A stretch of DNA of 64,000 nt from NCBI GenBank assembly GCA_945862265.1, contig CAMAXP010000008.1:543-64542 (forward strand), in the 5' to 3' direction. The notes under the pieces were generated by a model that saw only the letters and a program-made list of their open reading frames with translations, was not told where the DNA came from and did not search any database. Below, one piece after another: positions 14,490 through 55,102 of the stretch (the first letter of the stretch is position 1; every line of letters begins with the position of its first letter). Source of the DNA: Bordetella parapertussis. Lineage in GTDB: Bacteria; Pseudomonadota; Gammaproteobacteria; Burkholderiales; SG8-39. Both the position numbers and the translations under genes were made by a program.

Positions 14490-14762
14490 CTAGCCGATGA
14501 CGTTGGGAATGGACGTCAGCGTGCGCTGGATGTAGTCGGTCAGCGTGGCGAGCATCCACGGCCCGGCCACGACCAGCGCGGCGACCATGGCGAGGAGCTT
14601 GGGGATGAACGACAGGGTCATCTCGTTGATCTGGGTGGCCGCCTGCAGCACGCTGACCGCGAGGCCCACCACCAGCGCGGTGACAAGCAGCGGCGCCGAG
14701 ACCATCAGCATCACCTCCAGCGCCTGCTGGCCGATGGTGAGCACGCTTTGCGAGGTCATCAT
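14490..14762 (-). CDS. fliQ: Flagellar export apparatus protein FliQ
   Basis: 90 aa, [26 protein letters not shown]... The ATGATGA overlaps the fliP stop. Confidence 0.93.
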
Positions 14763-15508
14763 CGCGCGAAACTCGCCACGAGCGAACCCACCAGCAGCGT
14801 CCAGCCGTCGGCGAGAACGAAGAGCATCAGCTTGAACGGCAGCGAGATCAGCACCGGCGAGAGCATCATCATGCCCATCGACATCAGCACGCTCGCGACC
14901 ACCATGTCGATGATCAGGAACGGGATGAACACCATGAACCCGATCTGGAACGCGGTCTTCAATTCGCTGGTGACAAAGGCCGGCACGACGATGTGGATCG
15001 GGGTGGAAGCCGCATCCTTGGGCATGGGCTCGTTGGCGAGCTTCAGGAACAGCGCCAGGTCCGGCTCGCGGGTCTGCTTCAGCATGAAGCCCTTGACCGG
15101 CGGTTCGGCGCGCACCAGCGCGTCGTTGAAGGTGATCTTGTTCTGGCTCCAAGGCAGGTAGGCGTCGACGTAGACTTTTTCCAGCACCGGGCTCATCACG
15201 TACATCGTGAGGAACAGCGCGAGCCCGACCAGCACCTGGTTGGGCGGCGTCGATTGCGTGCCGAGCGCGCTGCGCAGCAGCGACAGCACGATGATGATCC
15301 GCGTAAAGCCGGTCATCATCAGCAGCACCGCCGGCAGGAAGGTCAACGCGGTCAGCGCAACCAGTGTCTGGATCGACAGCGTGTACGACTGCCCGCCGCC
15401 CGGCGCGGGCGAGCTGCTGAATGCGGGCAGGCCCTGCGCCAGCGCTTCGGGCGCGAACGACGCCAGCGCGAGCAGGATGAACAGCAGGAGGGCCTTCGCC
15501 TTACGCAC
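14759..15508 (-). CDS. fliP: Flagellar export apparatus protein FliP
   Basis: Signal peptide plus the conserved [23 protein letters not shown]...PPNQVL motifs. Confidence 0.95.
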
Positions 15509-15836
15509 GGTTTATCGCCTTCTTCAGGAGAGCGGAAAAATCGATTCCCATGGGAGATGCAGCAACGCCTGCCGGTGCCTCGGGCAGTTCACCCTTGGGC
15601 AGGGTCGCGAGCGCGCTGACGCGGCCGGGGGCCACGCCGAGCACCATCCACTGGGTGCCCACCTCGACAATCACCACGCGTTCCTTGGCGCCGACGGAGA
15701 GCGCCGAAACGACCTTGAGCAGCCGCGCGCTGCCTCCCGCGCTCGCGCCCATGCGGCGCGCGAACCACGCCGAAGCCGCGATCGCGCCGAGCACGACCGC
15801 AAGGCCGGCCATCATCTGCAGGAGGCTGCCGCTCAT
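15501..15836 (-). CDS. fliO: Flagellar biosynthesis protein FliO
   Basis: 111 aa with a single N-terminal TM segment. Positioned between fliN and fliP. Confidence 0.75.
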
Positions 15837-15842
15837 CTTGGA

Positions 15843-16262
15843 TCAGCGGTTGAGTTTGCGGATGCGCTCGGACGGCGTGATGATGTCCGTGAGGCGGATG
15901 CCGAACTTCTCGTTGACCACGACCACCTCGCCCTGGGCGATCAGGCAGCCGTTGACCAGCACGTCCATCGGTTCGCCGGCGAGGCCGTCCAGCTCGACCA
16001 CGCTGCCCTGCGCCAGCTGCAGGATGTGCTTGATGGGAATCTTCGTGCGCCCCAGCTCCACGGTGAGCTGCACCGGGATGTCGAGGATCATGTCGATGTC
16101 GTGGTTCGCGTTGGCGCTGCCCGTCGGCGAGAGCTTCTCGAAGATCGGTGCGGCGTCGCCCGCGGGTGCGCCGCCGGCCTGGGCCTGCTCGGCGAGCGCC
16201 GCGCCCCAGTCGTCGGCCGCGTCGTCCTGGTGCGCCGGTTGTTCCTGGACTGCGTTTTCCAT
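15843..16262 (-). CDS. fliN: Flagellar motor switch protein FliN
   Basis: C-terminal SpoA/FliN domain (DIPVQLTVELGRTKIPIKHILQL...VNGCLIAQGEVVVV). The start was taken at MENAVQ, just after the fliM stop. Confidence 0.9.
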   Translation of the reverse strand: MENAVQEQPAHQDDAADDWGAALAEQAQAGGAPAGDAAPIFEKLSPTGSANANHDIDMILDIPVQLTVELGRTKIPIKHILQLAQGSVVELDGLAGEPMDVLVNGCLIAQGEVVVVNEKFGIRLTDIITPSERIRKLNR

Positions 16263-16264: not shown

Positions 16265-17275
16265 CTAATCTCCCAGCAGGTTGTCTTGCTGGCGGACCGC
16301 AAGGATGCGATCCACCTTGATTGCGTACTGCGCGTTCTGCGTTCCGTAGGTGCACTCGAACACCGGCACGCCGTCGACTTCCGCGACCACGGTCTTAGGG
16401 ATGTCGGTGCCGATCACGTCGCCGACCTTCATCGACAGGAGCTGCTCCACCGTCGACGGGATGCGCGCGAACTGCGCCACCAGCTCCACGTCGGCCAGCT
16501 GCACCTGCTTGGAGAGCATCCTCACCCAGCGCTTGTCGGGTTCGTAGCTGTCACCTTGCAGGGATGAATACAGCATGTCGCGGATCGGCTCGATCATCGA
16601 GTACGGCAGCACGATGTGCAGCTGGCCACCCGACTGGCCGATCTCGATGTTGAACGTCGCCGTGACCACGATCTCGGAGGGGGTGGCGATATTGGCGAAC
16701 TGGGTGTGCATCTCCGAGCGCACGTGCTCGAATTTCACCGGGTAGATCGTTTCCCAGGACTTCTCGTAGTACTCGAACACGACGCCGAGCATGCGCTGGA
16801 TGATGCGCTGCTCGGTGAGCGTGAAGTCGCGACCCTCGACGCGGCTGTGGAAGCGCCCGTCGCCGCCGAACATGTTGTCCACCACCGCGAACACCAGGCT
16901 CGGGTCGAAGATGAACAGGCACGAGCCGCGCAGTGGCTTCATGTGCACAACGTTCAGGTTGGTCGGCACCACCAGGTTGCGGATGAACTCGGAGTACTTG
17001 ACCACCTTCACCGGGCTCACCGAGATTTCCGGGCTGCGCCGCATGAAGTTGAACATCCCGATCCTCAGGAGTCGCGCAAACCGGTCGTTGATGATCTCGA
17101 GCGTCGGCATGCGGCCGCGCACGATGCGCTCCTGCTTGCCGAGGTTGCCCCACAGCCAGGAGCCCACGACCAGGGCGACCAGCAGCGCGGCGCCGAGCAT
17201 GAAGCCCAGCTTGTTGCGGCCGGGCATCTGGCCGAAGCCTTGGGCAAGGGAGGCAACGTCGACTGCATTGGCCAT
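16265..17275 (-). CDS. fliM: FliM-like switch protein carrying a FliF-like N-terminus (apparent fliF'-'fliM in-frame deletion hybrid)
   Basis: From about aa 47 (QERIVRGRMPTLEIINDRFARLLR...) it is collinear with FliM. The first ~42 aa (MPGRNKLGFMLGAALLVALVVGSWLW) look like the FliF N-terminal TM region. The CheY-P binding LSQxEIDALL motif is absent. Confidence 0.85.
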   Translation of the reverse strand: MANAVDVASLAQGFGQMPGRNKLGFMLGAALLVALVVGSWLWGNLGKQERIVRGRMPTLEIINDRFARLLRIGMFNFMRRSPEISVSPVKVVKYSEFIRNLVVPTNLNVVHMKPLRGSCLFIFDPSLVFAVVDNMFGGDGRFHSRVEGRDFTLTEQRIIQRMLGVVFEYYEKSWETIYPVKFEHVRSEMHTQFANIATPSEIVVTATFNIEIGQSGGQLHIVLPYSMIEPIRDMLYSSLQGDSYEPDKRWVRMLSKQVQLADVELVAQFARIPSTVEQLLSMKVGDVIGTDIPKTVVAEVDGVPVFECTYGTQNAQYAIKVDRILAVRQQDNLLGD

Positions 17276-18489: not shown

Positions 18490-18779
18490 TCGGCTTCCTC
18501 CTTCATTCCGGACTCGATGCGATGCAGCCACGCGAGCAGCTCGGCCACCGCCACATACAGTTCGGGCGGGATGTGGCGGTCGAGGTCGACCTGCATCAGC
18601 AACCCGACGAGTTCGCGGGATTCGTGCACGTACACCCCGGCGTCGCGGGCGCGCCGGATGATTTCATCCGCGATCAGCCCGCGCCCCTTGGCGGACACGC
18701 GCGGGGCGCCCTTCCCGCCGGGGTAGGCGAGCGCGACCGCGGAGCGGGCCGGGTCAGCGGTGCTTTGGAAGTGCGCCAT
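18486..18779 (-). CDS. Stand-alone FlhB C-terminal-domain-like protein (EscU/YscU/HrcU family)
   Basis: About 97 aa, AVALAYPGGKGAPRVSAKGRGLIADEIIRRARDAGVYVHESRELVGLL...IPPELYVAVAELLAWL, typical of the small FlhB-domain proteins found downstream of fliK-like genes. Confidence 0.75.
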   Translation of the reverse strand: MAHFQSTADPARSAVALAYPGGKGAPRVSAKGRGLIADEIIRRARDAGVYVHESRELVGLLMQVDLDRHIPPELYVAVAELLAWLHRIESGMKEEAE

Positions 18780-19521
18780 GATCGACCCTGGCTTCCGCCA
18801 GCGTGAGTCCCTGCTGGCCCAGCGAGTGGGCGAGATCGCCGCGTGCGTCGAGAATCCTGCCTGCACTGGCCTGGTCGGCGGCGTGGATCGCGAGCCGCGC
18901 CTGTCGCCCACTGAGCGCCACGCGGGCCTCGATTTCGCCCAGCCCGGGCATGGTCAGGCGCAGCGACGCCTGCCAGGCCGGGGCTGCGTCAAGGGTCGTG
19001 CCATCGCTGTGCGGCTCTTCCTCTGCAATGCGTACTTCCACCGGCTGTCCGGGCCAGGCCTGGCCCTGCCACAGCGCCGCGCGGTTCTCCAGCACGTCGA
19101 GCTGGCGCTGTACCAGGGTTTCCGCCTGTGGCGCGAGCGGCGAATGCGGCGCGGCCGGCCGCGCCAGCGCAGCCTGGGGTTCGCGCAGCAGGCTTTCCTT
19201 TGCGCCCGCACCGTCCACCCAGTCGGCGAGGTGCGATTCGTAGAAGAGCCCGCTCGTGCCGATCGCGACCCTGAGCCCGGCCGCGACCCGGGCTGCATTG
19301 CCGGGCTGGTCCGACAGCGGCACCGGCGTGGTGATGGCTGCGAACTCCCCGCCATCAGCTGCGGCCGATGTGGCGAGGCGCGAGAGCATCTGCGCGGTGG
19401 AGCCCAGCTCCAGGTCCACAGCGGGCTCGCTCGAGAGGAGCAGCGCCGTGGCCTCCCGCCGCTCGGGAACCCACTGCGCCATGGCCTGGGCGCGCAAAAG
19501 TGAGATGGCCTCGCCGTTCAC
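18754..19521 (-). CDS. Flagellar hook-length control (FliK-like) protein, short form
   Basis: 255 aa with a C-terminal Flg_hook-like segment (LRLTMPGLGEIEARVALSGRQARLAIHA...LGQQGLTLAE). GTG start overlapping the fliT stop. Confidence 0.6.
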   Translation of the reverse strand: MNGEAISLLRAQAMAQWVPERREATALLLSSEPAVDLELGSTAQMLSRLATSAAADGGEFAAITTPVPLSDQPGNAARVAAGLRVAIGTSGLFYESHLADWVDGAGAKESLLREPQAALARPAAPHSPLAPQAETLVQRQLDVLENRAALWQGQAWPGQPVEVRIAEEEPHSDGTTLDAAPAWQASLRLTMPGLGEIEARVALSGRQARLAIHAADQASAGRILDARGDLAHSLGQQGLTLAEARVDHGALPKHR

Positions 19522-20311: not shown

Positions 20312-22291
20312 TTACTTCTGTGAATTCAGCTTGCTCAGTGCATCCAGTTGCTGGCTCAGGAAGCTGCTCGTGTTCTGCATCGAGGTCATGGTCTTGTCGA
20401 GCGCGATGAATTGGGCGCGCATCGCCGCTTCCACGCCTGTCATGCGTTGCGCGAAGGCTGCGCGCCGGTGGGCAAGGTCCGAGATGGAGGACTGGATGCC
20501 AGAGGTCCGCGCGGCCAGCGGGCCGGTAAGCATGCTGTTGACCAGCGTGTTTAGACTATCGGCCACGCCACGGGAAAAGTTGAGCGTGCCGCGCGCGCCG
20601 GTCACGCCTCCGGTGATCCCCACGGTGAGGCCCTTGGCGGTCAGGGTCTGGCCGGCCCCGGTCGCGGCGACGCCGCCGAGGGTGCCGGCGGCGTCCTGGC
20701 CCGCGCTGCTTGCCGGCGTGCCGAGGACGTCCGCCACGGCCGTCCCGCCCGTGACCGATACCGTGGCGTTGGAACCCCAGCGCCTGGACGTGAGCGTGAG
20801 CACGCCCCCGGAGGCGGATGCTTCGATGCCGTTGCCTGCCGCGACGAGGGCGGCGCTGCCATTGACGCGTGACTGGACCATCGCCGCAAGCGAAGTCGCC
20901 GTGTAGGTGCCGGCGGTGAGCGTTACGCTGGCGGTGATGCCGTCTACCGACAGGTCCAGGGTGTCATTGGCGCCGGCGGTGATCGTGAGCGCTGCGGGCG
21001 CCGATCCGACGGCGGCCCCGTGGGTGGCGAGCTGGCTGACGGTCAGGGCGTAGCTGCCGGCCACGGCGCTGGTGCCGGCCGAACCGAAGGTCACGAGGCT
21101 GTCGCTGGGAGTGCCGACCGCTGCAAATACGCTGGCCGCATCCTTGGCGGGGTCGGCCAGGGCGGCATTCAGCTTGGTGGAGTTGATCACCAGCGAACCG
21201 TCCTTCTGGAAGGCGATGCCGATTTCGGACAACGAGCCGTATCCCGTCGAGTTCGCCACGGTGGTGCCAATCGTGGCGCGCAGGCGCGCCTGCAGGCTGC
21301 GTACGGTCGAGTCTCCCTGCAGCACGGCGCCGGTCTTGGTCTCGGCGTTGTAGGCCGAGAGCGAACTGAGCATCGAATTCGCCGTGTTGTAGGCGGACAC
21401 GAAGGATTGCACGGCCGCAGCGGCGGACGCGGTGTTGCGCGCCACGGTTACGGTGGTCGACGTGCCGGGCGATGCCTTGGCGAGATTCAGCGTGACGCCT
21501 TCGATCGCGCCGCTGAGGGAATTGGTCGCGCTGGTGACGGTGATGCCGTTGACCACCGCCTTCGCATCCTGGGCGACCGTCGCCTGGGTGAGGTTCGCCG
21601 TGCCCCCGGTGCTCGCGTCGTAGGCGAGCGCCGACAGCCCGGCGGTGTCGGTGTTGTCGAGGTCTGCGTCCACGACGCTGATGCGCATTGCGCCGGAGGC
21701 TCCGGTGTATTGCGAGGCGAGCACCAGGCGTTGGCCGCTGCCGTCATTGACGATGCTTGCTGTTACTCCCGCCTTGGCGGCATTGATCGCGTCACGCACG
21801 CCGGACAGCGAATCCTGGCCCGCGCCGATGGTGATGGTCGCGGACGGTTTCGAGGCGTCCGCGCTGAACGCGCCACCAGAATAGGCGCCGAAGTCGATGG
21901 TCAAAGTTCCGCTGCCCACGGTCGTGAGCGTCGAGGCATAGGGGGAGGAGGCGAGGGACTGCGCCTGCGCGAGCTTTTGCACTTCGAGGGCATAGGTCCC
22001 CGCGGCCGTGCCGGCGGAGGCTGAGGCGCTGGCGAGGCTCGAGTCGGCCACGGTGGCGCTCACTCCACGCAGCACTTGTAAGCCGGAGAGCGAGCCGGCT
22101 GCGGACTGCAGCGTCGCGAGCGCGCTGCTCACCTGCCCGTAGGCCGAAAGCTTGGCCTTGAAATCCGCCGTCTTGTTGTCCATCAGCGTCTCGGGCTGGC
22201 GCTCGATGCTCATCAGCTTGGTGACCAGGGAGCTGACGTCCAGTCCCGAGCCGATGCCGGTCGAGGAGATCGCCGTGGAGGAGGTCGCCAT
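20312..22291 (-). CDS. fliD: Flagellar filament cap protein FliD
   Basis: 659 aa. N-terminus ISSTGIGSGLDVSSLVTKLMSIERQP and C-terminus AMRAQFIALDKTMTSMQNTSSFLSQQL. Confidence 0.9.
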   Translation of the reverse strand: MATSSTAISSTGIGSGLDVSSLVTKLMSIERQPETLMDNKTADFKAKLSAYGQVSSALATLQSAAGSLSGLQVLRGVSATVADSSLASASASAGTAAGTYALEVQKLAQAQSLASSPYASTLTTVGSGTLTIDFGAYSGGAFSADASKPSATITIGAGQDSLSGVRDAINAAKAGVTASIVNDGSGQRLVLASQYTGASGAMRISVVDADLDNTDTAGLSALAYDASTGGTANLTQATVAQDAKAVVNGITVTSATNSLSGAIEGVTLNLAKASPGTSTTVTVARNTASAAAAVQSFVSAYNTANSMLSSLSAYNAETKTGAVLQGDSTVRSLQARLRATIGTTVANSTGYGSLSEIGIAFQKDGSLVINSTKLNAALADPAKDAASVFAAVGTPSDSLVTFGSAGTSAVAGSYALTVSQLATHGAAVGSAPAALTITAGANDTLDLSVDGITASVTLTAGTYTATSLAAMVQSRVNGSAALVAAGNGIEASASGGVLTLTSRRWGSNATVSVTGGTAVADVLGTPASSAGQDAAGTLGGVAATGAGQTLTAKGLTVGITGGVTGARGTLNFSRGVADSLNTLVNSMLTGPLAARTSGIQSSISDLAHRRAAFAQRMTGVEAAMRAQFIALDKTMTSMQNTSSFLSQQLDALSKLNSQK

Positions 22292-24045: not shown

Positions 24046-24073
24046 TTATCGGGCTCCCCTCCGGAAAACTTTA
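24046..24073 (-). promoter_or_regulatory. Putative sigma-28 (FliA) class III promoter of fliC
   Basis: The minus strand reads CTAAAGTTTTCCGGAGGGGAGCCCGATAAG, compared with the consensus TAAAGTTT-N11-GCCGATAA. It lies about 120 nt upstream of the fliC ATG. Confidence 0.55.
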
Positions 24074-24316: not shown

Positions 24317-24631
24317 ATGAATACGGAAACGATGCTCGACGAAATCCGCGACGCCAACCTCACCTACCTGATGCTGGCCCAGGCCCTGATCCGCAAGGAC
24401 CGCGCGCAGGCCCTGTTCCGCCTCGGACTGTCCGAGGAAGTCGCCGACGTGGTGGCCGGCCTTTCCGCCGCGCAGATCCTCAAGATTGCCGCGTCCAATA
24501 TGGTGATGTGCCGGTTCCGGTTCGACGACCAGGTGGTCTGGAACCTGCTGACCAGCCATGGCCGCGACAAGGAAGTGTCGGGTGTGCACGCGGCGATCCT
24601 CATGGCCGGCCGACTCGCGCAAGCCGCCTAA
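24317..24631 (+). CDS. flhD: Flagellar master regulator FlhD
   Basis: LDEIRDANLTYLMLAQALIRKD...AASNMVMCRFRFDD is the FlhD signature. Confidence 0.93.
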   Translation: MNTETMLDEIRDANLTYLMLAQALIRKDRAQALFRLGLSEEVADVVAGLSAAQILKIAASNMVMCRFRFDDQVVWNLLTSHGRDKEVSGVHAAILMAGRLAQAA

Positions 24632-25170
24632 TGGCAAAGGGAAAGAGCATCGTCGGCGAAAGCCGCGACATCGGCAGGGCGGTCGAGCTGATCAAGCTGG
24701 GCGCCCGCCTGCAGGTCCTCGAGTCGGAGACCAGGCTTTCGCGCGAGCGATTGCTGCGCCTCTATAAGGAAGTGCAGGGCAAGTCGCCACCCAAGGGCAT
24801 GCTGCCGTTCTCGACCGACTGGTTCATGACCTGGCAGCCGAACGTCCACAGCTCGCTTTTCATGAACATCTACAGCTTTCTCGACAAGACTACCGAACTC
24901 GATGAAATCGACGCGATCATCAAGGCCTACCAGTTGTACCTGGAGCAGGCCGGTTCGCATGGCCTGGAGACCGTGTTGTCGGTGACCCGGGCCTGGCGCC
25001 TGGTGAAGTTCTTCGATGCGGGCATGCTGACGACCGTGCCGTGTACCAAGTGCGGTGGCCACTTCGTGGCCCACACGATGGACCTGCACGACCATTTCGT
25101 CTGCGGCCTGTGCAACATGCCTTCCCGCGCCGGCAAGACCCGCGCGGCGGCGGAAAGACGGGCTGCTTAG
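24631..25170 (+). CDS. flhC: Flagellar master regulator FlhC
   Basis: KSIVGESRDIGRAVELIKLGARLQVLESET... plus a C-terminal Cys4 zinc site (CTKCGGHFV...VCGLC). TAATG overlap with flhD. Confidence 0.93.
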   Translation: MAKGKSIVGESRDIGRAVELIKLGARLQVLESETRLSRERLLRLYKEVQGKSPPKGMLPFSTDWFMTWQPNVHSSLFMNIYSFLDKTTELDEIDAIIKAYQLYLEQAGSHGLETVLSVTRAWRLVKFFDAGMLTTVPCTKCGGHFVAHTMDLHDHFVCGLCNMPSRAGKTRAAAERRAA

Positions 25171-25376
25171 CCAGACAGGATCTCCCCTCAAGCTTTTCAA
25201 GTAGTTGCGGTGCAAGCTGTTTGCAGTAGCGGTAGTTCTTCAATAGGCACCCGGTCCAGCCGGCAGACAGCCGGCGGGCGGGGGCCCGGTTTTTTCCCGG
25301 CCGTCCCGCCTTCCGCCTCAAGAGTTCCGGATTCGTGCCGTCAATCAAGGCACAAGCACTCGCGGGACCAAAAGCC

Positions 25377-26339
25377 ATGCTGATCATCATTGGATACCTC
25401 ATCGTCATCGGGTCCGTCTTCGGGGGGTATGCGCTGGCGGGCGGGCACCTGGCTGCGCTGATGCAGCCGCTCGAGCTGCTCATGATCGGCGGCGCCGCGG
25501 TGGGCGCGTTCCTGGTCGGCAATCCCGTGAAGACGCTCAAGGCGACCTTCAAGGCACTGCCGTCGATGCTGAAGGGCTCCAAGTACACCAAGGCGCTGTA
25601 CATGGAGCTGATGGCACTGCTCTACGAAATCCTCACCAAGGTGAGGAAGGAAGGGCTGATGTCGATCGAGGGGGACATCGAGGCGGTGCATGAGAGCCCC
25701 CTGTTCAACAAGTACCCGGACATCGTTGCCGACCACCACCTCGTCGAGTTCCTGACCGACTACCTGCGCCTGATCGTCTCGGGGAACCTGAACCCGATGG
25801 AGATCGAGAACCTGATGGACAACGAGATCGACACGCACCACCACGAAGGCAACATCCCGGCCCAGGCGATCCAGAAGGTCGGCGACGGCCTGCCCGCGTT
25901 CGGCATCGTCGCGGCGGTGATGGGTGTGGTGCACACCATGGGCTCGGTGGGCCTGGACACGACCAACATCCGCTTTCTCGTGGTGGACGATTTCTCCACC
26001 ATGCGCCGCATCGTGAGGAACCTCCTCAAGGAGATCGGCCACGCCAACGTAGACGAGGCCGAGGACGGCCAGGTTGCGCTGAACAAGCTGAAGGCGAATG
26101 CCTTCGACTTCGTCGTGTCGGACATCAACATGCCGAACATGAACGGCTTCGAGCTGCTGCGCAACATCCGCGAGGACGTGGCCCTGAAGAAGCTGCCGGT
26201 GCTGCTGGTGACGGCCGAAGCCAAGAAGGAGGACATCATCCTTGCCGCGCAGATCGGCGCGTCCGGCTATATCGTCAAACCCTTCACCAAGGCGACCCTC
26301 GAAGAGAAACTCGCCAAGATCCTCGCAAAGGCAGCCTGA
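25377..26339 (+). CDS. Hybrid ORF: MotA N-terminal ~190 aa fused in frame to an essentially complete CheY receiver domain
   Basis: aa 1-192 match MotA ([25 protein letters not shown]...[17 protein letters not shown]). From [22 protein letters not shown]...[11 protein letters not shown]...[10 protein letters not shown]...[19 protein letters not shown] the sequence is CheY. MotA TM3/TM4 are missing. Confidence 0.85.
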
Positions 26340-26340: not shown

Positions 26341-26811
26341 ATGGGCAATGCAGCCGAATTGGATGACCTCGAGGCCCTGTTCGACCAGGTGGCCGCCGAG
26401 ACCCGCGCAGCGCAGGCCGTCCCTGCGCCCGTGACCGAATCCGTCCCTGCCACCGGCGCCGCGCCAGCCAACGAATCCGCTCATGATATTTGCGCAGTCC
26501 CCACCGTTGCACCGGGCGAGGATCAAATCTTCCACCGGGTCGGCCACCTCACTCGCACGCTGCACGATGCGCTGCGGGAACTGGGCTACGACCGCAATCT
26601 CGAGAGCGCCGTGCAGGGCCTGCCTGACGCGCGTGACCGGCTCAATTACATTGCCACCCTGACCGGCCAGGCCGCTGACCGTGCCCTGTCGGCGGTCGAG
26701 TATGGGCAGGAAATCCAGAAGGCCCAGCTGGGCGTGACCGAATCGCGCATCTGCCAGTTGCATACCCAGGCGGTGGCGCGCCTGCGCACCAGGATGAAGG
26801 AGTGGTCGTGA
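26341..26811 (+). CDS. Hybrid ORF: CheZ N-terminal ~120 aa fused in frame to the last ~30 aa of sigma-28 FliA
   Basis: IFHRVGHLTRTLHDALRELGYD...LPDARDRLNYIATLTGQAADRALSAVE matches CheZ. The C-terminal LGVTESRICQLHTQAVARLRTRMKEW matches the FliA region 4.2 HTH end. Confidence 0.72.
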   Translation: MGNAAELDDLEALFDQVAAETRAAQAVPAPVTESVPATGAAPANESAHDICAVPTVAPGEDQIFHRVGHLTRTLHDALRELGYDRNLESAVQGLPDARDRLNYIATLTGQAADRALSAVEYGQEIQKAQLGVTESRICQLHTQAVARLRTRMKEWS

Positions 26812-26812: not shown

Positions 26813-27988
26813 ATGGCACTGATCGGGTTGGCGTCGCTCGCGCGCATGGCCTTTTCCGGCGCGGACCTCGCGCCGATCGGGGCGCAGCTGCTTGCTCGCG
26901 CGGCCGAGGATCCGGAGGATGCCGATGCGCTGATGGACATGTCCGCCGTGCTGCACCTGCGCGGCAATCGAGACCTGGGGCTCGCGCTTCAGGCGCAGGC
27001 GCTGGACCTGCGGCAGGTGTACCGCGTCGGCACAGGCGAGGGGCTGAAGGTCCTGGTGCTGGTCAGCCCGGGCGACCTGGCCGAGAACAACGTGCTGGAG
27101 TTCCTGCTCGAAGAATCGAGCGTTACGCTCGAGATGCTGTATGTGTCGATCGACCTCCCGCTGCCTTCGCCGTTGCCGGAACATGACCTCGCCTTCGTCG
27201 CCGTGTGCGAGACGGACCTCAACCGGCCGCTGCTCAGGCACCTGGAAGGCGTGCTGGCGCACTGGCCGCACCCGGTGCTCAACCGCCCGGGGCGGATTGC
27301 GCGGCTCTCGCGCGATGGCGCTTGCGCCGTACTGGGGGCGGTGCCTGGGGCGTACATCCCGACCACCGTGCGGGTCGATCGCACCGCGCTGGCGCGGATA
27401 GGCGAAGGCGCGTCGATCAAGGCCTTCTTCGGAGGCGGTTACCCGGTCATCGCCCGGCCCGTCGATTCGCACAAGGGGCAGGGGCTCGCCAGGCTGGAAG
27501 ATCCAGCGTCGGTGCTCGACTACCTGGTCGATCGTCCAGAAACCTTCTTCTACCTGTCGCCCTTCGTTGACTACCAGTGCGCCGACGGGCAGTACCGGAA
27601 ATACCGAATCGTCTTCATCGAAGGGCGCCCTTACGCCTGCCACATGGCGATCTCGTCCAACTGGATGGTGCACTACATGAGCGCGGGCATGGCCGCGAGC
27701 GCCACCAAGCGCGCCGAGGAACAGCGCTTCATGGAGGACTTCGATATCCATTTCGCGTTGCGGCACCGCGAGGCCCTGGCCGCGCTGAGCGACCGGCTCG
27801 GACTGGAGTATGTCGGGATCGACTGCGGGGAGACGCCGGAAGGCAAGCTGCTGATCTTCGAAGTCGACAGCGGCATGACGGTGCACGCGATGGACGGGGT
27901 GGATGTGTTCCCGTACAAGCAGGTGCAGATGAAGAAGGTGTTCCGGGCGTTCCGGGAGATGCTCGAAGCCCGCCTCAGTCGCCCTTGA
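26813..27988 (+). CDS. ATP-grasp (RimK/glutathione-synthetase-like) domain protein with helical N-terminal region
   Basis: The C-terminal half (PVIARPVDSHKGQGL...YRKYRIVFIEGRPYACHMAIS...EYVGIDCGE..GKLLIFEVDSGM) resembles ATP-grasp ligases. Confidence 0.65.
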   Translation: MALIGLASLARMAFSGADLAPIGAQLLARAAEDPEDADALMDMSAVLHLRGNRDLGLALQAQALDLRQVYRVGTGEGLKVLVLVSPGDLAENNVLEFLLEESSVTLEMLYVSIDLPLPSPLPEHDLAFVAVCETDLNRPLLRHLEGVLAHWPHPVLNRPGRIARLSRDGACAVLGAVPGAYIPTTVRVDRTALARIGEGASIKAFFGGGYPVIARPVDSHKGQGLARLEDPASVLDYLVDRPETFFYLSPFVDYQCADGQYRKYRIVFIEGRPYACHMAISSNWMVHYMSAGMAASATKRAEEQRFMEDFDIHFALRHREALAALSDRLGLEYVGIDCGETPEGKLLIFEVDSGMTVHAMDGVDVFPYKQVQMKKVFRAFREMLEARLSRP

Positions 27989-37717: not shown

Positions 37718-40700
37718 TCAGTTCCCGCGTTCGGCGAGAAACTCCGCCAGCACCCGCGCCGTGTGGGATTGCGCCGGGGTCGCGGCCAGCGCCTCGGGTG
37801 AGGCCTGCGCCACCACCTTGCCCCCGGCATCGCCGCCTTCGGGGCCGAGGTCGATGATCCAGTCGGCTTCGGCCATGATGTCGAGGTTGTGCTCGATCAC
37901 CACGACGCTGTTGCCTGAATCGACAAGGCGATGCAGCACGTGGATCAGTTTTTCCACGTCGGCCATGTGCAGGCCGACCGTGGGCTCGTCGAGCACGTAG
38001 AGCGTGTGCGCGAGTTCACCCGCGCGGCCCGGGCGGGCGAGGGCGTTGCCGTTGGCGTCGATGCGCACCTTCGAAAGTTCGGTCACCAGCTTGATGCGCT
38101 GGGCCTCACCGCCGGAGAGCGTCGGGCTCTGCTGGCCGAGCGTGAGGTAGCCGAGGCCCACGTCCTGCATCAGGCGCAGCGCATGGTGGATCGAGGTGTG
38201 CGCCGCGAAGAACTCCACGCCCTCGTCGATGTTCATCGCAAGGATGTCGCCGATGGATTTGTCGCGCCACTTGACCGACAGCGTCTCGGCGTTGAAGCGC
38301 TGGCCGTTGCAGACGTCGCAAAGCACGCGCACATCCGGCAGGAACGACATCTCGATGCGTTGCACCCCCTGGCCTTCGCAGGCCTCGCAGCGGCCGCCTT
38401 TGGTGTTGAACGAGAAGCGGCTGGCGGTCCAGCCGCGCATGCGGGACTCGTTCGCCTCGGCAAAGATGCGGCGGATCGAGTCCCAGAAACCCACATAGGT
38501 CGCAGGGCACGAGCGCGGCGTCTTGCCGATCGGGGTCTGGTCGACCTCGAGCACGCGGCCCACGCCCTCGGCCCCCTTGAGGGTCTTGCAGCCCTTGAGC
38601 GGGACGTCGGATTTCGCCCGCCGCTCCGCCACCAGCTTGGCGAGGTTCGTGTGCAGCACGTCGCGCGCGAGCGTGGACTTGCCCGAGCCGGACACGCCCG
38701 TGACGACAGTCAGGCGGCCCAGCGGCACGCGCGCACTGACGTTCCTGAGGTTGTGCAGGGTGGCGCCGCCGATTTCGATCGACGGCGTGGACTTGGCGAC
38801 CGCGCGGCGCGGGTGGATCGGGTGGCGCAGCGGCGACTTGAGGAACCGTCCGGTGAGCGACTCGGGGTTGGCCATCAGGTCGTCAGCTGAGCCTTCGGCA
38901 ATCACGCGGCCGCCGAGGCGTCCGGCGCCGGGGCCGAGATCCAGGACATGGTGTGCGCGGCGGATCGTGTCCTCGTCGTGCTCCACCACCACCAGCGTGT
39001 TGCCCTTGGCCTCGAGCTTCTCCAGCACGTCGAGCAGGATCCTGTTGTCGCGCGGGTGCAGGCCGATGGTCGGTTCGTCGAGGATGTAGCACACGCCGCG
39101 CAGGTTTGAACCCAACTGCGCCGCAAGGCGAATGCGTTGCGCCTCGCCGCCCGAAAGCGTCGGCGCGGAGCGGTCGAGCGACAGGTAGCCGAGGCCGACC
39201 TCTTCGAGGAAGCCGAGGCGCGAGCGCAACTCGGCGAGCAGGTCGCGCGCGATCTCCTCGTCGCGGCCCGCGAGCTTCATGTCCTTCACGATTGCGCGGA
39301 TCTTGCCTACCGACAGCGCGGTGAAGTCGGCAATCGAACGGTCGTGGTAACGCACGGCGAGGGCCTCGGTGTTCAGGCGCTTGCCGTCGCAGGTGGGGCA
39401 GGCTTCCTCCACCTCCAGCCATTCGAGCCAGGAGTCGAGCACGTGGTCTTCGGTGCCGCTCTTCTCGCGCTCGGCGTCCCAGTCGATGCCGGTGAGCTTC
39501 AAGCCGGTGCCGTAGCAGGTGGCGCACCAGCCGTGCTTGGAGTTGAACGAGAAGAGGCGCGGGTCGAGCTCCGCGAAGCTGCGCGCGCACGAAGGGCAGG
39601 CGCGCTTGGTGGAGAAGACCTGCTGGTGCAGTTGCATCTCGACGAGCGGGGCCTTGGACTTGGACGCAGCCTTCACCAGCGCGTCGAGGTCCGACAGCAC
39701 GTGCACTACGCCCTTGCCGAACTCGAGCGCCTTGGCGAGTTCGCGCCTCAGCATCGCTTCGTTCTCGGCTGTGACCCGCAGGTCGGACACTGGCAGTTCC
39801 AGCGTGTGTTCCTTGAAGCGGTCGAGGCGCGGCCAGGCGGCGGTGGACATGAACTCGCCGTCGACGCGCAGGTGCGTGTAGCCCTTGCCGCGCGCCCACT
39901 TGGCGAGGTCGGTGTAGAAGCCTTTGCGGTTCATCACCAGCGGCGCGAGCAGGCCGATGCGCTGGCCCTTGTAGTCGCGCATTAGGCGGGCCACGATCGC
40001 GTCCTCGGTCTGCGGCTCGATCGGCACGTCGCAGTCGGGGCAGTACTGCGTGCCGAGCTTCACGTACATCAGCCGCAGGAAATGGTAGATCTCGGTGAGC
40101 GTGGCCACCGTGGACTTGCGCCCGCCGCGGCTGGTGCGCTGCTCGATCGCCACCGTGGGCGGGATGCCGAAGATCGCGTCCACGTCCGGCCGGGCCGCGG
40201 GCTGCACGAACTGGCGGGCGTAGGCGTTCAGCGATTCGAGATAGCGGCGCTGGCCCTCGGCAAAGATGATGTCGAACGCGAGCGTCGACTTGCCCGAGCC
40301 CGACACGCCGGTGACCACGGTGAACCGGCCGCGCGGGATCTCGACGTCGATGTTCTTGAGGTTGTGTTCACGGGCATTGTGAATGCTGATGTTGTTCGAC
40401 AGCAGCCGGGTCTGCAGCGGCATTTCGCGCAGGATCCCGGAGGTGGCCGGGTTGGTCAGCGCCTCTTCGTAAGCCTTGAGGGCCACGCCCGTGTGCGAGG
40501 CGGGGTTGGTCGCGATGTCGAGCGGCGTGCCGACCGCGACGATCATGCCGCCGGCTTCGCCGCCTTCGGGCCCGAGGTCGATGATCCAGTCGGAAGCCGA
40601 GATGACGTCTAGGTTGTGTTCGATCACCACCAGCGAGTGGCCGGCGCCGAGCAGCTGGCGGAACGCGCGCAGGAGCTTGGCCACGTCGTCGAAATGCAGG

Positions 40701-43387
40701 CCCGTGGTCGGTTCGTCGAACAGGAACAGCTTGCTCGAATGCGGCGTGTAGAGCGCACGCTGCGGCGGGTAGCGCTTGTCGCTGGTCTTGGCCGTCTCGG
40801 CCAAATGCCCGGCCAACTTGAGGCGCTGGGCTTCGCCGCCCGAGAGCGTGGGTACCGGCTGCCCGAGCCGCAGGTATTCGAGGCCGACATCGGCCAGCGG
40901 CTTCAGCACGCGCTGCACTTCGGCGTAGTCGCGGAAGAACTTGATCGCTTCCGACACCGTGAGTTCGAGCACGTCGGCGATCGACTTGTCGCGCACGATG
41001 ACTTCCAGCACCTCGCCGCGGAAGCGCTTGCCGTCGCAGTCCGGGCAGCGGAGGTAGACGTCGGAGAGGAACTGCATCTCCACGTGCTCGAAGCCGTTGC
41101 CGCCGCAGGTGGGGCAGCGGCCGTTGCCGGCGTTGAAGCTGAACGTGCCTGCCGTGTAGCCACGTTCCTTGGCGGTGTCCGATTTTGCGTAGATGTCGCG
41201 GATCGCGTCCCAGGCGCCGACGTAGCTGGCGGGGTTGGAGCGCGTGGTCTTGCCGATGGGCGACTGGTCGACCATGACCACCTCGGCCACGTGCTTGGCG
41301 CCACGCAATTCGCGGTGCTTGCCGGCCATTTCGGAAGGCTTGCCCTTGGACTTCAGCAGCGCTGCGTACAGGACGTCGTGGACGAGCGTGGACTTGCCCG
41401 ATCCCGAGACGCCGGTTACGCACACCAGCCGCTGCAGCGGGATCGTGACGTCGATGTTCTTGAGGTTGTGCTCTTCGGCGCCGAGGATCTCGAGGCTCGG
41501 CGCAGAGGGCAGCATGCGCGCGCGGCCTTCGGCCCAGGCCGCTTCGCCGGCGCGCTTGCGCCCGGAGAGGTACTCGGCGGTCAGCGTCTTGGATTGCCGC
41601 AGTTCGGTGGGCGGGCCGAAGAACACGATCTCGCCGCCGCGCTCGCCGGGGCCCGGGCCCATGTCCATGATCCGGTCGGCCTCGAACATGATCTGCGGGT
41701 CGTGCTCGACGACGACGAGCGAGTTGCCCGCGTCGCGCAGGCGCTTCATCACGTCGATGACGCGGCCCATGTCGCGCGGGTGCAGGCCGATGGAGGGCTC
41801 GTCCAGCACGAAGAGCGTATTGACGAGCGAGGTGCCCAGCGCCGTGGTCAGGTTGATGCGCTGGACCTCGCCCCCCGACAGCGTGCGCGACTGGCGATCC
41901 AGCGTCAGGTAGCCGAGGCCCACGGCATTGAGGAAGCGCAGCCGCGAGCGGATCTCGGTGACGAGCAGGTCTGTGGCCTCATCGAGCGGCGCGGGCAGCT
42001 GCAGCGTCTCCACAAAATCGCGGAGCGCGTCGATGGGCATCAGCATCAGGTCGTGGATCGACCTCTTGCCGGGCTCGAGCTTGTAGAGCAGGGCGTCGGG
42101 CTTGAGGCGCGTGCCGTTGCAGGCCGGGCAGGGCGTGTACGCGCGGTACTTCGAGAGCAGCACGCGGATGTGCATCTTGTACGCCTTGCTCTCCAGCCAG
42201 TGGAAGAAGCGCCGCACCCCGTACCAGATGCCGGGCCAGGAGGTCTTCCAGTCCACCCACTCAGGCTCGCCTTCGAGCACCCAGTGGCGGTGCTCGTCCT
42301 TCATCTCGCGCCAGGGGGTGTCGAGAGGGATGCCGCGCTTCTTCGCGTACTTCTCGATGTCGGTCTGGCATTCCTTGAAGCTCGGCGTCTGCCACGGGCG
42401 GATCGCGCCGTCGCGCAGGCTCTTGGTCTCGTCCGGGACGATCAGGCCGAAGTCGATGCCGATCACGCGGCCAAAGCCGCGGCAGGTGTCGCAGGCGCCG
42501 AGCGGCGAGTTGAAGGAGAACAGGCTCGGCACCGGCTCGCTGTAGTGGAAGTCGCAGTCCGGGCAGTGCAGGTCCGAGGAGTAGCGCCAGACTAAATCGG
42601 GGTCAGAGTCGATTTTCGTTGCGGTGGCGGCGCTTTCTGCAGTCGAGTCCGAAATCCGACTCTGCCCCCGATTTAGTTCGTCGTCCAATACAACGTATAC
42701 GCTGACCTTGCCTTGGCCCACGCGCAGCGCGGATTCCAGCGCCTCGCTGACGCGGGCCTTCTCGGCGTTGCCCATGCGCAGGCGGTCCTGCACTACTTCC
42801 AGCACGGTGCTGGAGCGCGCGTGGATGCGGGTGTAGCCCTGGTGCTCCAGCATCTGCATGACTTCGGCTTCGCTGAAGTTCTTGGGCACGGTGATCGGGA
42901 AGGTGATCACGAGGCGCGGGTCGTTCGCCGCGGCGGCGCGCTTGCACAGGTCCGCGTAGATCGCCTCGGGCGAGTCGCGCTTCACCGGCCGGCCGCAGCC
43001 GCGGCAGTAGAGCTGCGAGGCCCGTGCGAAGAGCAGCTTGATGTGGTCGTTCAGCTCCGTCATCGTGCCTACGGTGGAGCGCGAGGTGCGGACCTGGTTG
43101 GTCTGGTCGATCGCAATCGCGGGCGGGATGCCGTCGATGCGGTCCACCTGCGGCTTGTCCATGCGGTCGAGGAACTGCCGCGCGTACGGCGAGAAGGTCT
43201 CGACGTAGCGGCGCTGCCCCTCGGCGTAGAGGGTATCGAAGACGAGGGAGGACTTGCCCGAGCCCGAGACGCCGGTGACGACGACCAGTTCCCCGGTCGG
43301 GATCGTGACAGTCAGGTTCTTGAGGTTGTTCTGCCGGGCGCCGTGGATGACGATGGCGTTGGCGGGAGGCGATTGCGGCATTGCCAC
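37718..43387 (-). CDS. uvrA: Tandem-duplicated excinuclease ABC subunit A (UvrA-UvrA fusion, 1889 aa)
   Basis: Two complete UvrA-like units (aa ~1-950 and ~960-1889). Each has two ABC modules (four GVSGSGKS Walker A motifs, four LSGGE signatures) and Cys4 zinc modules. Confidence 0.9.
42592..42676. repeat. Palindromic MITE/REP-like element inserted in frame in uvrA
   Basis: The termini CTAAATCGGGGTCAGAGTCGATTT and AAATCCGACTCTGCCCCCGATTTAG are inverted repeats with 2 differences. The element is translated as [28 protein letters not shown]. Its termini recur at 58982..59073. Confidence 0.6.
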
Positions 43388-43827: not shown

Positions 43828-43901
43828 ACCGCGTCCCGGACCTCCGGCCCCTGGCAGCGCAGGGTATGCTCCACTCCTAGCGCTGCCGGCCGAGATCCCA
43901 G

Positions 43902-43928
43902 AAAAGCCGCAGAAATGCGGCTTTTTTT
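43902..43928 (+). terminator. Intra-operon rho-independent terminator/attenuator between the precursor gene and the export genes
   Basis: AAAAGCCGCA-GAAA-TGCGGCTTTTTTT: a 7-bp GC stem extendable by A:U pairs, a GAAA tetraloop and a T7 run that ends at the ATG of the next gene (43929). Confidence 0.65.
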
Positions 43929-45293
43929 ATGCCCGAACCCTCCCGCTTCCCCGCCCTGATTGCCGCCGGCCTGTGCATGGCCATGATGGGGGCTGCCGGC
44001 TCCGGGCGCGCACAGTCCCCGGCGCTGGCCTTGAAGCCCGCGCCAGCCTTGCCGTCGGGTCCTACCCGACTGTCCGAGCTGGCGGCTCGCGCCCTGGAGG
44101 TACAGCCGGTCATCCGCGGCGCTGAAGCCCGCGAGCGCGCCGACGATGAACGGCTCGAGCAGGCGAGGGGCGCCTTGCGACTCAACGTTGCCGGCGCGCT
44201 GGGGTATCGCCGCGAATTCGCCAATTCCGGCTTCACCGTGCCCTACAGCTCCTCCTATTCGGCCGTGCAGTTCGCCCTCCCACTGTACCGCCCGCAATCC
44301 GACGCAGGGGTCGTGCAGGCCCAGTCGCAGCGCGAAACCTCGCGGTTTGCGCGATTCGAAACCCAGCGTGACGTGCTGTCCAAGCTCGCCGAGACCTTCC
44401 TCGCGGCCGCCCAGTCCGATGCCGAAGCGGGCCTGCTCGAGCAGGAGCGGGCATTGCTGCTGCAACAGCGCACGCTGAACGAACGCCGCATGGCGGGCGG
44501 CGTCGGCACCAGCGTCGAAGTCATGGAGACCGCGGCTCGCGCCGATTCGCTGCTGGCCCAGGTCCAGGGCGCGCAAGGCAGCTACCTGATGCAACTGGCC
44601 GACATCGGGCGCCTTGCCGGCGTCCCGGTGGTGCGCGTCGAGCGCGTTCGCGAGGCCGAGCCGCCCTATGTCGTGCCCGGTAACGTTGCGGCGGCGCTGG
44701 CACTGGCACGTGAGCGCAGCGCCTCGCTGGCGCGCCTCAACGCGACGGTTGCGCTGGCGCGCGCCACTGCAGAGTTCCAGCGTGCCGGCGTCAGCCCGAC
44801 GATCGACCTCGTCGGGAACTACGACCTCGGCCGCTCCCTGGTGAGCGGCGTCCCCCAGTCCCTGCCGTCCACGTCCCTCGGCGTCCAGCTTGCGGTACCC
44901 TTGTGGACGGGGGGCATCGCAGGCGCGCGGGTACGCGAGGCGCTGGCGCTGGCCGAAAAGGCGGAGGCGGACCTGAAAGACGCGGAGTGGGTGCTCGAGG
45001 CGGAATTGCGCAAGGCGTACTTCGACCTTGAGCGCAACCAGAAACAGTGGCGGACGCAGGCCGGCGCCCTGGAGATCGCGATGCAGGCCTACACGGCGAC
45101 ACGCAAGGCGTTCGAAGCCGGCGTGCGCAGCAACATCGACCTCCTCAATTCGCAGCAGCTGACTTTCTCGGCGCGACGGGAGGCGCTGCGCGCGCGAGTC
45201 GCCATCCTGCTCGCCCAGGTGCGCATCCTCGCGCTGAGCGAGACCCTGAACGTGGAATTCCTGGCGCGGCTCGACCCCGCGTTCGGCGACTGA
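43929..45293 (+). CDS. TolC-family outer membrane efflux protein (type I secretion OMF)
   Basis: 454 aa with a signal peptide and two OEP-type repeats (L.A...A..YRPQ... and VPLWTGG...). First export gene after the precursor. Confidence 0.85.
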   Translation: MPEPSRFPALIAAGLCMAMMGAAGSGRAQSPALALKPAPALPSGPTRLSELAARALEVQPVIRGAEARERADDERLEQARGALRLNVAGALGYRREFANSGFTVPYSSSYSAVQFALPLYRPQSDAGVVQAQSQRETSRFARFETQRDVLSKLAETFLAAAQSDAEAGLLEQERALLLQQRTLNERRMAGGVGTSVEVMETAARADSLLAQVQGAQGSYLMQLADIGRLAGVPVVRVERVREAEPPYVVPGNVAAALALARERSASLARLNATVALARATAEFQRAGVSPTIDLVGNYDLGRSLVSGVPQSLPSTSLGVQLAVPLWTGGIAGARVREALALAEKAEADLKDAEWVLEAELRKAYFDLERNQKQWRTQAGALEIAMQAYTATRKAFEAGVRSNIDLLNSQQLTFSARREALRARVAILLAQVRILALSETLNVEFLARLDPAFGD

Positions 45294-45309
45294 CCGGGAT
45301 GGGCGGCGC

Positions 45310-46557
45310 ATGAGCGACCTGTTCCGCCCCGAGGCCATCCAGGCCAGGCAGAACCGCTGGGCGGGCGACGCGGCGACCATCCGGCCGGTTTCGGCATGGA
45401 AGACAGTGGCGTTCCTCTCGCTGCTGTCGATCGGCGCCATTGCGTTCCTGTTCGTCGGGTCGTACACGAAGAAAGAAAGGGTGTCCGGCGTGGTCATGGC
45501 GGCCGACGGCGTGGTCCGCCTGCGCGCACCGGAGCTTTCCGTGATTTCCGCGGTGCTGGTCAAGGACGGGCAGGAAGTGAAGGCGGGGGACCCCATCGCC
45601 GAGCTGTCGCGCGAGCGCTTCAGCGACGCCGGCGCGACGGTTGCGCTGGTGGACCAGAGCCTCGGCCGGCAGCGCGCGCAGATCGAGCAGCAGGTGCGCG
45701 AGCAGAAGGGGGCGGCGGTGGCCGGCATCGCGGCGATTCGCGACCGTATCGCGCGAGCGCAGAAGGACATGCTCACGGTCGACGAGGAGATCCGCCTGCA
45801 GGGGGAGCTGATCTCCTCCGCGCAACGCATGGTCGCCAACCTCAAGCCGCTGGCCGAGGAGAAGATCATCTCCGACCTGCAATACCAGCAGCAGCTGAAC
45901 CAGTTGATCGACCAGCGCGCCCGCCTCGAGACGCTGAAGCGCACCCGCCAGGGTCTGGTTTCCGAAGTCGCCACCTCGCAAAGCGACCTCGTCGCGCTGC
46001 AGGCAAAGGCGGCGGCCGAGGTGGCCGGCGTAGAGCGCACGGCGCTCGCGCTCGACCAGGACCGCCTGCAGCGGCGCACCGACAGCGTGACCCAGCTCCG
46101 CGCGCCAGTGTCCGGCACCGTGACGTCGCTGGTCGGCGCGGTCGGGCACCGGGTCGATCCCGCCACGCCGATTGCGACGATCGTGCCGGCCGGGGCGAAG
46201 CTGCAGGCCCTGCTGTTCGTGCCGAGCAGCGCGGTCGGGTTCATCAAGATCGGGCAGCGCGTGGCGGTGCGCTACGACGCGTTCCCGTTCGAGAAGTTCG
46301 GCCAGTACGCCGGCACCATCGTCAAGGTGTCCGAGGTCGACGTGCCGGCCGCCGAACTCGAGCTGCCCATCGTCGTGAAGGAAAAGAGCACGCTGTACCG
46401 CGTGCGGGTGGAGCTCGACCGGGACTCGGTCGATGCCTACGGCGCGCCGGTGCGGCTGCGGCCGGGGCTCAGCCTCGCTGCGGACATCGAGCTGGACCGC
46501 CGCACCCTCATCCACTGGGTCTTCGACCCGCTGTTCGCGCTCGGCAAGCGCTTGTAG
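45310..46557 (+). CDS. HlyD/CvaA-family membrane fusion protein of a bacteriocin type I secretion system
   Basis: LFRPEAIQARQNRWAGDA... parallels colicin V CvaA (FRQDALENRKMKWQGRA). One N-terminal TM segment, a coiled-coil middle, and C-terminal RYDAFPFEKFGQYAGTI (CvaA has RYEAFPAEKFGQF). Confidence 0.9.
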   Translation: MSDLFRPEAIQARQNRWAGDAATIRPVSAWKTVAFLSLLSIGAIAFLFVGSYTKKERVSGVVMAADGVVRLRAPELSVISAVLVKDGQEVKAGDPIAELSRERFSDAGATVALVDQSLGRQRAQIEQQVREQKGAAVAGIAAIRDRIARAQKDMLTVDEEIRLQGELISSAQRMVANLKPLAEEKIISDLQYQQQLNQLIDQRARLETLKRTRQGLVSEVATSQSDLVALQAKAAAEVAGVERTALALDQDRLQRRTDSVTQLRAPVSGTVTSLVGAVGHRVDPATPIATIVPAGAKLQALLFVPSSAVGFIKIGQRVAVRYDAFPFEKFGQYAGTIVKVSEVDVPAAELELPIVVKEKSTLYRVRVELDRDSVDAYGAPVRLRPGLSLAADIELDRRTLIHWVFDPLFALGKRL

Positions 46558-46566
46558 GCGACCACG

Positions 46567-49976
<3,410 letters not shown>

Positions 49977-49980
<4 letters not shown>

Positions 49981-53374: not shown

Positions 53375-53475
53375 GGCAGGGATGGGCGGCCCGGCGAGGG
53401 CCGCCCCGCGGCCTCGGATAAACGGCCTGTCGCCGGTCGCTGGACAGCTATACTCCTTAGGCGTACAGTACCCGG

Positions 53476-54088: not shown

Positions 54089-54104
54089 AAGTGGGGGATT
54101 AAAC

Positions 54105-54392: not shown

Positions 54393-54442
54393 GGAAACCG
54401 AAGACGAAATTCACATCATCTCCATGCGAAAAGCGGAACTCC

Positions 54443-55090: not shown

Positions 55091-55102
55091 AGAGGTGGGG
55101 CT

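Follow-up and report, generated by a model that had tools for sequence, protein, structure and literature searches.

An in-frame motA'-'cheY fusion that is very probably a fresh deletion relic in the flagellar cluster of a Burkholderiales strain

Results

A motA'-'cheY Hybrid Open Reading Frame

The flagellar and chemotaxis genes in a 64,000-nucleotide stretch of contig CAMAXP010000008.1 (assembly GCA_945862265.1; the whole stretch is called the window hereafter) include an open reading frame (ORF) in which the 5' part of motA continues in frame as cheY. This motA'-'cheY hybrid is the subject of the present analysis. An earlier note, made from the sequence alone, had described it as the product of a deletion, and the ORF, its family matches and the intact parental genes of related strains all agree with this description. 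The hybrid and its parts are located as follows:

25377..26339, plus strand: motA'-'cheY hybrid ORF of 320 amino acids (aa), from the ATG at 25377 to the TGA at 26337-26339
25377..25955, plus strand: motA' part, codons 1-193, with transmembrane helices TM1 and TM2, a cytoplasmic loop carrying R90 and E98, and TM3 with P173
25954..25955, plus strand: junction 1, a TG microhomology between motA codon 193 (CTG) and the cheY start codon (ATG)
25956..26339, plus strand: 'cheY part, codons 2-128 and the stop codon, with a complete receiver domain

Residues 1-198 of the hybrid matched positions 1-198 (of 282) of the NCBIfam MotA equivalog model TIGR03818 with 275.3 bits, which is below the cutoff of 303.8 for a full-length MotA. 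Residues 196-318 matched positions 4-126 (of 129) of the CheY equivalog model NF007901 with 202.6 bits, above the cutoff of 189. Pfam assigned the domains MotA_N, a truncated MotA_ExbB and Response_reg. Up to the junction, the motA' DNA shares 99.2% identity with its intact counterpart in a close relative (contig L201); at the protein level, the MotA part shares 95% with the intact MotA of L099, a relative with about 94% nucleotide identity. TM4 and the MotA C-terminal domain are absent. The CheY part is 100% identical to P0123, the free-standing CheY of sister strains, and aligns over its whole length with the solved structures of E. coli and Salmonella CheY. Residues D204, D205, D249, T279 and K301 of the hybrid correspond to D12, D13, D57, T87 and K109 of CheY, all of which the earlier note had recognized, and the equivalent of Y106 is there as well. 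The native start codon and ribosome-binding site of cheY are gone, and in the hybrid CheY is not a free-standing protein of about 128 aa. The earlier note had followed MotA to about residue 192 and had placed the joint within nucleotides 25947-25965; collinear MotA residues 1-193 and a junction at 25953-25955 in a three-way alignment bear this out. Its statement that CheY is joined at about residue 5 is right in E. coli numbering only, since the hybrid retains its own CheY from residue 2.

The Membrane Part Retains Three Helices

Hydropathy and alignment revealed three hydrophobic helices (TM1, TM2 and TM3) in the hybrid, where the earlier note had seen a two-TM anchor. The hydrophobic segment 175-193 (TM3) is kept together with P173, while the strong TM4 segment, which spans residues 198-227 in the intact MotA of L093, has been lost. 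The break therefore lies after TM3 and not, as had been supposed, before the TM3 and TM4 helices. The four-helix arrangement of MotA, in which TM3 and TM4 line the ion path with MotB, is not found in the hybrid. E. coli MotA aligns without gaps to the MotA part of the hybrid, with R90, E98 and P173 at the same positions; in the E. coli sequence, these three residues and P222 lie at the places described in the literature.

TM3 of native MotA leads from the cytoplasmic to the periplasmic side of the membrane. The receiver domain of the hybrid begins five residues after TM3, and the 30 residues after this helix contain five Lys or Arg residues. Since the receiver domain follows TM3, either this domain would need export or TM3 would not insert, and both outcomes would be aberrant. 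The five Lys/Arg residues count against export and suggest a frustrated topology. If the hybrid protein is made, it would be a three-helix fragment with the receiver attached on the side that normally faces the periplasm.

Junction 1 and the Ancestral Gene Order

The first relatives to be compared (L004 to L008, about 72% nucleotide identity) were replaced by strains of 94-99% identity, because they were too distant and had a slightly different gene order, with a methyl-accepting chemotaxis protein (MCP) gene after cheA. Their local order is fliG, fliF / fliE, ycgR, flhB-like, fliK-like, fliT, fliS, fliD, flaG, fliC, continuing with flhD, flhC, motA, motB, cheV, cheY, cheZ, cheA ... flhB, flhA. 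The much closer strains were reached because the 90%-identity protein cluster containing the hybrid was made up of free-standing 128-aa CheY proteins. We used L201, L204 and L103 (about 99% identical) and L093 and L099 (94-96% identical) as intact comparators. In these close strains the order is flhD-flhC-motA(289 aa)-motB-cheV-cheY(128)-cheZ(258)-cheA-small ORF, followed by flhB-flhA-flhF-flhG-fliA(238)-orf391-pepN, and on the other side fliR...fliM-fliL-fliK-fliJ-fliI-fliH-fliG-fliF / fliE.

The three-way alignment revealed that exactly 2,243 bp are gone at junction 1 relative to L201. The left parent in L201 reads ...GTG GGC CTG/CCG CCG (motA codons 191-195) and the right parent ...CAGATC ATG/GAC ACG (start of cheY), and the window reads GTG GGC CTG GAC ACG across the joint. 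The parents have 2 nt in common at this site, and there is no inserted DNA, mobile element or repeat. Lost are motA codons 194-289, motB, cheV, the cheV-cheY spacer with the cheY ribosome-binding site, and Met1 of CheY. Thus, the two halves of the ORF are collinear with two genes that are intact in L201 and L204, the intervening genes are gone, and the joint is clean, with a short microhomology and no mobile element. The earlier note had listed motB, cheA, cheW, a receptor gene, cheR and cheB as deleted here. This was correct for motB, while cheA was lost through a separate downstream deletion; cheW, a receptor gene, cheR and cheB are not part of the cluster in the intact strains of 94-99% identity, and an MCP gene after cheA occurs only in the more distant lineage of about 72% nucleotide identity.

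The identical 320-aa protein recurs on at least five public contigs. Its sources include the ENA entries ERZ27280278 (113.9 kb) and ERZ27280263, the Logan assembly of ERR3719154, which was made with another assembler, and the NCBI record, and the contigs bearing the hybrid are 99.99-100% identical to the window.

No Family of MotA(N)-REC Proteins Was Found

A conserved family of MotA N-terminal fusions with a receiver domain (MotA(N)-REC), which the earlier note had considered as the other way to explain the ORF, did not emerge from two protein searches. Among 5.8 billion clustered proteins, the best 120 of 8,000 scored candidates were all MotA proteins of 273-299 aa. In an exhaustive HMMER search of 1.84 billion representatives, each of the best 150 hits matched one half or the other, and none matched both. 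A Pfam scan of hits with odd length gave none with MotA_N plus Response_reg, and the exact junction sequence was absent from the GTDB species-representative genomes. These negative results are to be read with the caveat that clustering may conceal a hybrid behind a parent protein that represents the cluster, as was the case for the present one. Some other fusion-like proteins turned up on the way. P0251 (322 aa, from another organism) consists of MotA_N, a truncated MotA_ExbB and MotB_plug and looks like the product of a motA'-'motB in-frame deletion. In P0271 (335 aa) and P0375 (447 aa) a truncated MotA is followed by unassigned sequence.

Two Further In-Frame Fusions in the Same Cluster

The same comparison revealed two more fusion ORFs among otherwise full-length flagellar genes:

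14493..16262, minus strand: fliQ, fliP, fliO and fliN, full length
16265..17275, minus strand: fliF'(1-43)-'fliM(38-330) hybrid, 336 aa
17453..23929: fliE, ycgR, flhB-like, a Flg_hook-domain gene, fliT, fliS, fliD, flaG and fliC, full length
24317..25170, plus strand: flhD and flhC, intact master regulator genes directly 5' of motA'
26341..26811, plus strand: cheZ'(1-129)-'fliA(last 27 codons) hybrid, 156 aa, from family matches, tblastn and junction alignments

The cheZ'-'fliA junction at 26727-26728 has a GC microhomology, and 8,541 bp are gone, comprising the 3' half of cheZ, cheA, the small ORF, flhB, flhA, flhF, flhG and most of fliA. Of the 258 residues of CheZ the first 129 remain, and the catalytic half is missing. 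The tail LGVTESRICQLHTQAVARLRTRMKEWS corresponds to the FliA C-termini in dozens of betaproteobacterial loci (tblastn). The alignments assign the removal of cheA to this deletion and not to the motA'-'cheY deletion. The fliF'-'fliM junction at 17146-17147 has a TG microhomology; 6,904 bp are gone with fliF, fliG, fliH, fliI, fliJ, fliK, fliL and the FliM N-terminal peptide LSQEEVDALL, which is the docking site for phosphorylated CheY (CheY-P). Together the three deletions sum to 17.7 kb, each with a 2-nt microhomology and without an insertion sequence (IS) element or repeat. By our own random-sequence estimate, roughly 16% of random junctions would show a microhomology of 2 nt or more. The 2 nt found at each junction fit microhomology-assisted illegitimate recombination.

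In tblastn searches of the 64-kb window, the proteins of motB, cheA, flhA, flhF, flhG and fliG to fliL had no match. MotA therefore has no partner motB there (query: MotB of an intact relative), and the earlier note's remark that no kinase is encoded nearby holds for CheA. The FlhB query matched only the short flhB-like paralogue, with 39% identity. The CheY circuit of CheA, CheZ and the FliM docking peptide is likewise not found in the window, with cheA deleted, CheZ cut and FliM starting from residue 38. The flagellar genes that are retained gave full-length tblastn alignments to the proteins of intact relatives, with no frameshift or stop. As a side observation, the lineage has two Flg_hook (FliK-like) genes: one of about 255 aa (18754-19521, minus strand) adjoins fliT and is kept in the window, and the second, of 397-400 aa, lies between fliJ and fliL (3535-4728 in L099) and is deleted in the window. 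A 97-aa gene resembling the FlhB C-terminus (Bac_export_2) adjoins ycgR.

Promoter, Terminator and the Downstream Gene orf391

Scans of the spacers and the downstream region added the following features:

24046-24072, minus strand: sigma-28-like motif 5' of fliC (pattern match)
25275..25298, plus strand: terminator-like hairpin and T-run between flhC and the motA promoter (scan), conserved in L093 and L004
25318..25344, plus strand: sigma-28 (FliA)-type promoter-like motif TCAA-N15-GCCGTCAA, 33 nt 5' of the motA start
26813..27988, plus strand: orf391, 391 aa, weakly RimK-like ATP-grasp, no Pfam match

The motif 5' of motA is kept in L093, L004 and L008 despite a diverged surrounding spacer. 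With a sigma-28-type motif at motA, a hairpin after flhC and FliA gone, motA would be FliA-dependent and the hybrid probably hardly transcribed. A further sigma-28-like motif lies in the 3' part of fliD, 5' of fliS (20556-20582, minus strand). Since fliA is deleted, the sigma-28-like promoters upstream of fliS and fliC should be silent in the window strain as well. The start of orf391 lies 1 nt past the fliA stop codon, in the window as in intact strains, and orf391 is kept in both deletion types. The spacers between cheY and cheZ and between fliA and orf391 are 1 nt each, as is typical of translational coupling. Relatives of orf391 in GTDB genomes, with 46-59% identity, belong to unrelated phyla only. 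In the GTDB species-representative genomes, orf391, FlhA and PurA had none but distant relatives, with 46%, at most 70% and at most 83% identity; the strain thus lacks a close representative in that set and is placed no more narrowly than among uncultured Burkholderiales or betaproteobacteria.

Flagellar Genes Have Been Lost Repeatedly in This Species

We collected a population set of contigs with an identical FliP, FliN or FlhC protein, whose DNA is 98.9-99.6% identical to the window. Most of these contigs have the intact cluster (L103, L104, L106, L192-L194, L196-L200 and L207-L209). Other members carry lesions of their own. A single deletion in L105/L195 (3815-3821) runs from about codon 58 of flhG to about codon 278 of fliM, with a microhomology of 4-7 nt. 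In L107 (238-239) an unrelated ORF is joined in frame to FliM residue 53, with a GC3 (GC content at third codon positions) of 0.87 in the fused frame; this N-terminal partner had no Pfam match and may resemble a TonB-dependent receptor. In L108 (about 363) the tail of a GGDEF gene is joined to fliN at about codon 53, and in L213 (1476-2784) an IS30-family transposase replaces the 5' part of flhD. Within one species, the routes of loss thus comprise three small deletions, one deletion of about 33 kb, fusions with unrelated genes and an IS30-family insertion in flhD. We conclude that in this species the flagellar cluster has been lost repeatedly and in recent times.

Several further candidates were set aside. 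In L215 (about 2371) motA is joined to other DNA 123 nt before the contig end; this possible but uncertain junction is indistinguishable from an assembly artefact. The apparently split motA, cheA or cheZ genes of L096, L203/L210 and L211 were rejected because the scaffolds carry N runs (100-200 N), and among these genes the N run was located inside motA for L203 only.

Other Genes in the Window

Outside the flagellar cluster, a very long ORF at 37718-43387 (minus strand, 1,887-1,889 aa) encodes UvrA-type DNA-binding and ABC domains and is about twice as long as an ordinary UvrA. From about 43900 to 50000 (plus strand) follow genes for an outer-membrane factor and a membrane-fusion protein, along with one for an ABC exporter of 1,137 aa that includes a C39 peptidase domain; the set looks like a bacteriocin-type export system. 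Small toxin-antitoxin-like genes of the RelE, HTH_3, BrnA and MqsA families lie after this exporter set, at about 52500-55100.

Discussion

Our data argue that the motA'-'cheY ORF is very probably a fresh, non-functional relic of a spontaneous deletion at a 2-nt microhomology, one of three such deletions in the flagellar cluster of this strain. The event would have taken place in a single strain of an uncultured Burkholderiales species that is normally flagellated. There, illegitimate recombination between sites with a 2-nt microhomology would have removed 2,243 bp and brought motA codon 193 together with the cheY start codon. Jointly, the three deletions would have taken away the stator (the rest of MotA, and MotB), CheV, CheA and the catalytic half of CheZ, and in addition the export gate (FlhB, FlhA), FlhF, FlhG, FliA, the rotor and export genes from fliF to fliL, and the FliM docking peptide. 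Since its partners are deleted, the hybrid is expected to be without kinase, phosphatase or target. The identity of the CheY part with P0123 indicates neither decay nor adaptation since the deletion. From the missing partners and the missing sigma factor, the outcome would be a loss of function. The earlier note had left two options for the ORF, a dead relic or a neo-functional orphan regulator. The first is favored by the deleted partners, the intact parents and the lack of a MotA(N)-REC family in our searches, while the second has against it a CheY part unchanged relative to P0123 and the deletion of every known partner.

Several points speak against reading the hybrid as a dead relic. The hybrid ORF is perfectly intact and its active site is complete, and so the product may have a function. 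A second fliA, cheA or flagellar system may exist outside the 64-kb window. The topology was derived from that of native MotA, and the promoter and terminator assignments are consensus matches. Finally, the in-frame state of the junctions may point to selection that acts on the products or on the expression of downstream genes.

These points bear on the rival explanations to different degrees. Least probable of all is an assembly or binning artefact, that is, a chimeric contig or a collapsed repeat in a genome that truly has an intact region from motA to cheY. The contigs are metagenome assemblies from samples that also contain close strains with intact loci, strain mixtures are a known source of misassembly, and some of the ENA entries may share reads with the Logan contig. 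Of assembly collapse, which the earlier note had considered, there was however no sign. The same junction appears in at least two ENA samples, in the Logan contig of a different assembler and in the NCBI record, and three clean junctions lie on one contig of 113.9 kb, the flanks of which are continuous and 99-100% identical to other copies. Because the parents share only 2 nt at the junction, far less than any assembler k-mer, as is true of each of the three junctions, a collapse across a repeat is not plausible. We also regard it as highly unlikely that the hybrid is a neo-functional, membrane-tethered orphan regulator that receives its phosphoryl group from acetyl phosphate or a non-cognate kinase and acts on a new partner. 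The intact, in-frame ORF, the presence of all CheY catalytic residues, a score above the CheY equivalog cutoff and the unexplained in-frame state of all three junctions would suit such a protein. However, there is not a single amino-acid change relative to free-standing CheY and hence nothing that points to adaptation, the allele is confined to one strain type, and we found no other MotA_N-REC protein in our searches. The deletions have removed CheA and FliG as well as the catalytic half of CheZ and the docking peptide of FliM, and the likely promoter would require the deleted FliA. Moreover, the receiver would sit five residues past TM3 on what is the periplasmic side in native MotA topology.

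The reading frame deserves a closer look. The three window junctions and the fusion in L107 all preserve the reading frame. Junction 1 was not counted as evidence, because the earlier reader had noticed it for being in frame; the chance of an in-frame state is 1/9 for the two window junctions free of this bias and 1/27 when L107 is added. It is conceivable, but rather improbable, that the scars are real and their in-frame state was selected, with ribosomes kept on the mRNA up to orf391, Rho-dependent polarity avoided and the hybrid serving as a translated spacer; in an alternative form of this idea, toxic out-of-frame fragments of membrane proteins were avoided. The three window junctions together with the X'-'fliM fusion of L107 (GC3 0.87) would fit this, as would the retention of orf391 in both deletion types. 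The 1-nt cheY-cheZ and fliA-orf391 spacers permit coupling to orf391, so that in-frame junctions might shield orf391 from polarity. On the other side, the sample is tiny, and the polarity argument fails for fliF'-'fliM, because only flagellar genes (fliN to fliR) lie downstream of it. A FliA-dependent motA promoter would also leave little transcript to protect. We therefore consider chance the more likely explanation of the in-frame junctions. Only tentatively, and with considerable doubt, one may propose that the co-oriented in-frame junctions (three here, one in L107) are non-random and reflect either selection for continued translation or one repair event with multiple breaks. If this were true, hybrid ORFs would be footprints of natural operon dismantling, and a membrane-tethered CheY might be transiently expressed.

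Returning to the deletion relic as the preferred explanation, the hybrid is an ordinary by-product of gene loss that should be annotated as a pseudogene rather than as a novel kind of response regulator. The base-resolved breakpoints and the known ancestral state make this cluster a natural example of parallel and very recent loss of motility. It could lend itself to work on the formation of deletions at a 2-nt microhomology, on the pace at which a cluster is dismantled, and on selection against flagella, be it through cost, phage or grazers.

How does the hybrid relate to known systems? Residues 1-193 are collinear with MotA (TIGR03818; MotA5B2 structures 6YSL and 6YSF), and the intact MotA of the relative L093 matches the solved MotA chains. 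In contrast to MotA, the hybrid has no TM4, no second conserved proline (P222, E. coli numbering), no C-terminal domain and no adjacent motB, and it is predicted to be unable to form the MotA5B2 channel as known. Its receiver is a complete CheY domain (NF007901; structures 2CHE and 1A0O), in which about 70% of the aligned positions agree with E. coli CheY. Unlike CheY, it is not free-standing, as 193 residues of a membrane protein replace Met1. The hybrid is an instance of a well-known kind, the fusion pseudogene left behind by gene loss. P0251 would be the same kind of scar, although the partner domain and the organism differ, and none of the sporadic MotA N-terminal fusion ORFs has a receiver domain, unlike the hybrid. 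At the level of the cluster, a comparable case is broth-passaged Campylobacter jejuni, in which motility was lost irreversibly and every evolved line had, in parallel, a deletion of rpoN, the gene for the flagellar sigma factor (PMC7677240). Here, too, a flagellar sigma factor gene (fliA) is among the losses, and independent lesions hit the same cluster. The present case differs from C. jejuni in that the populations are uncultured and environmental, seen through metagenomes and not in the laboratory, and in that one strain carries three in-frame, microhomology-mediated deletions instead of one.

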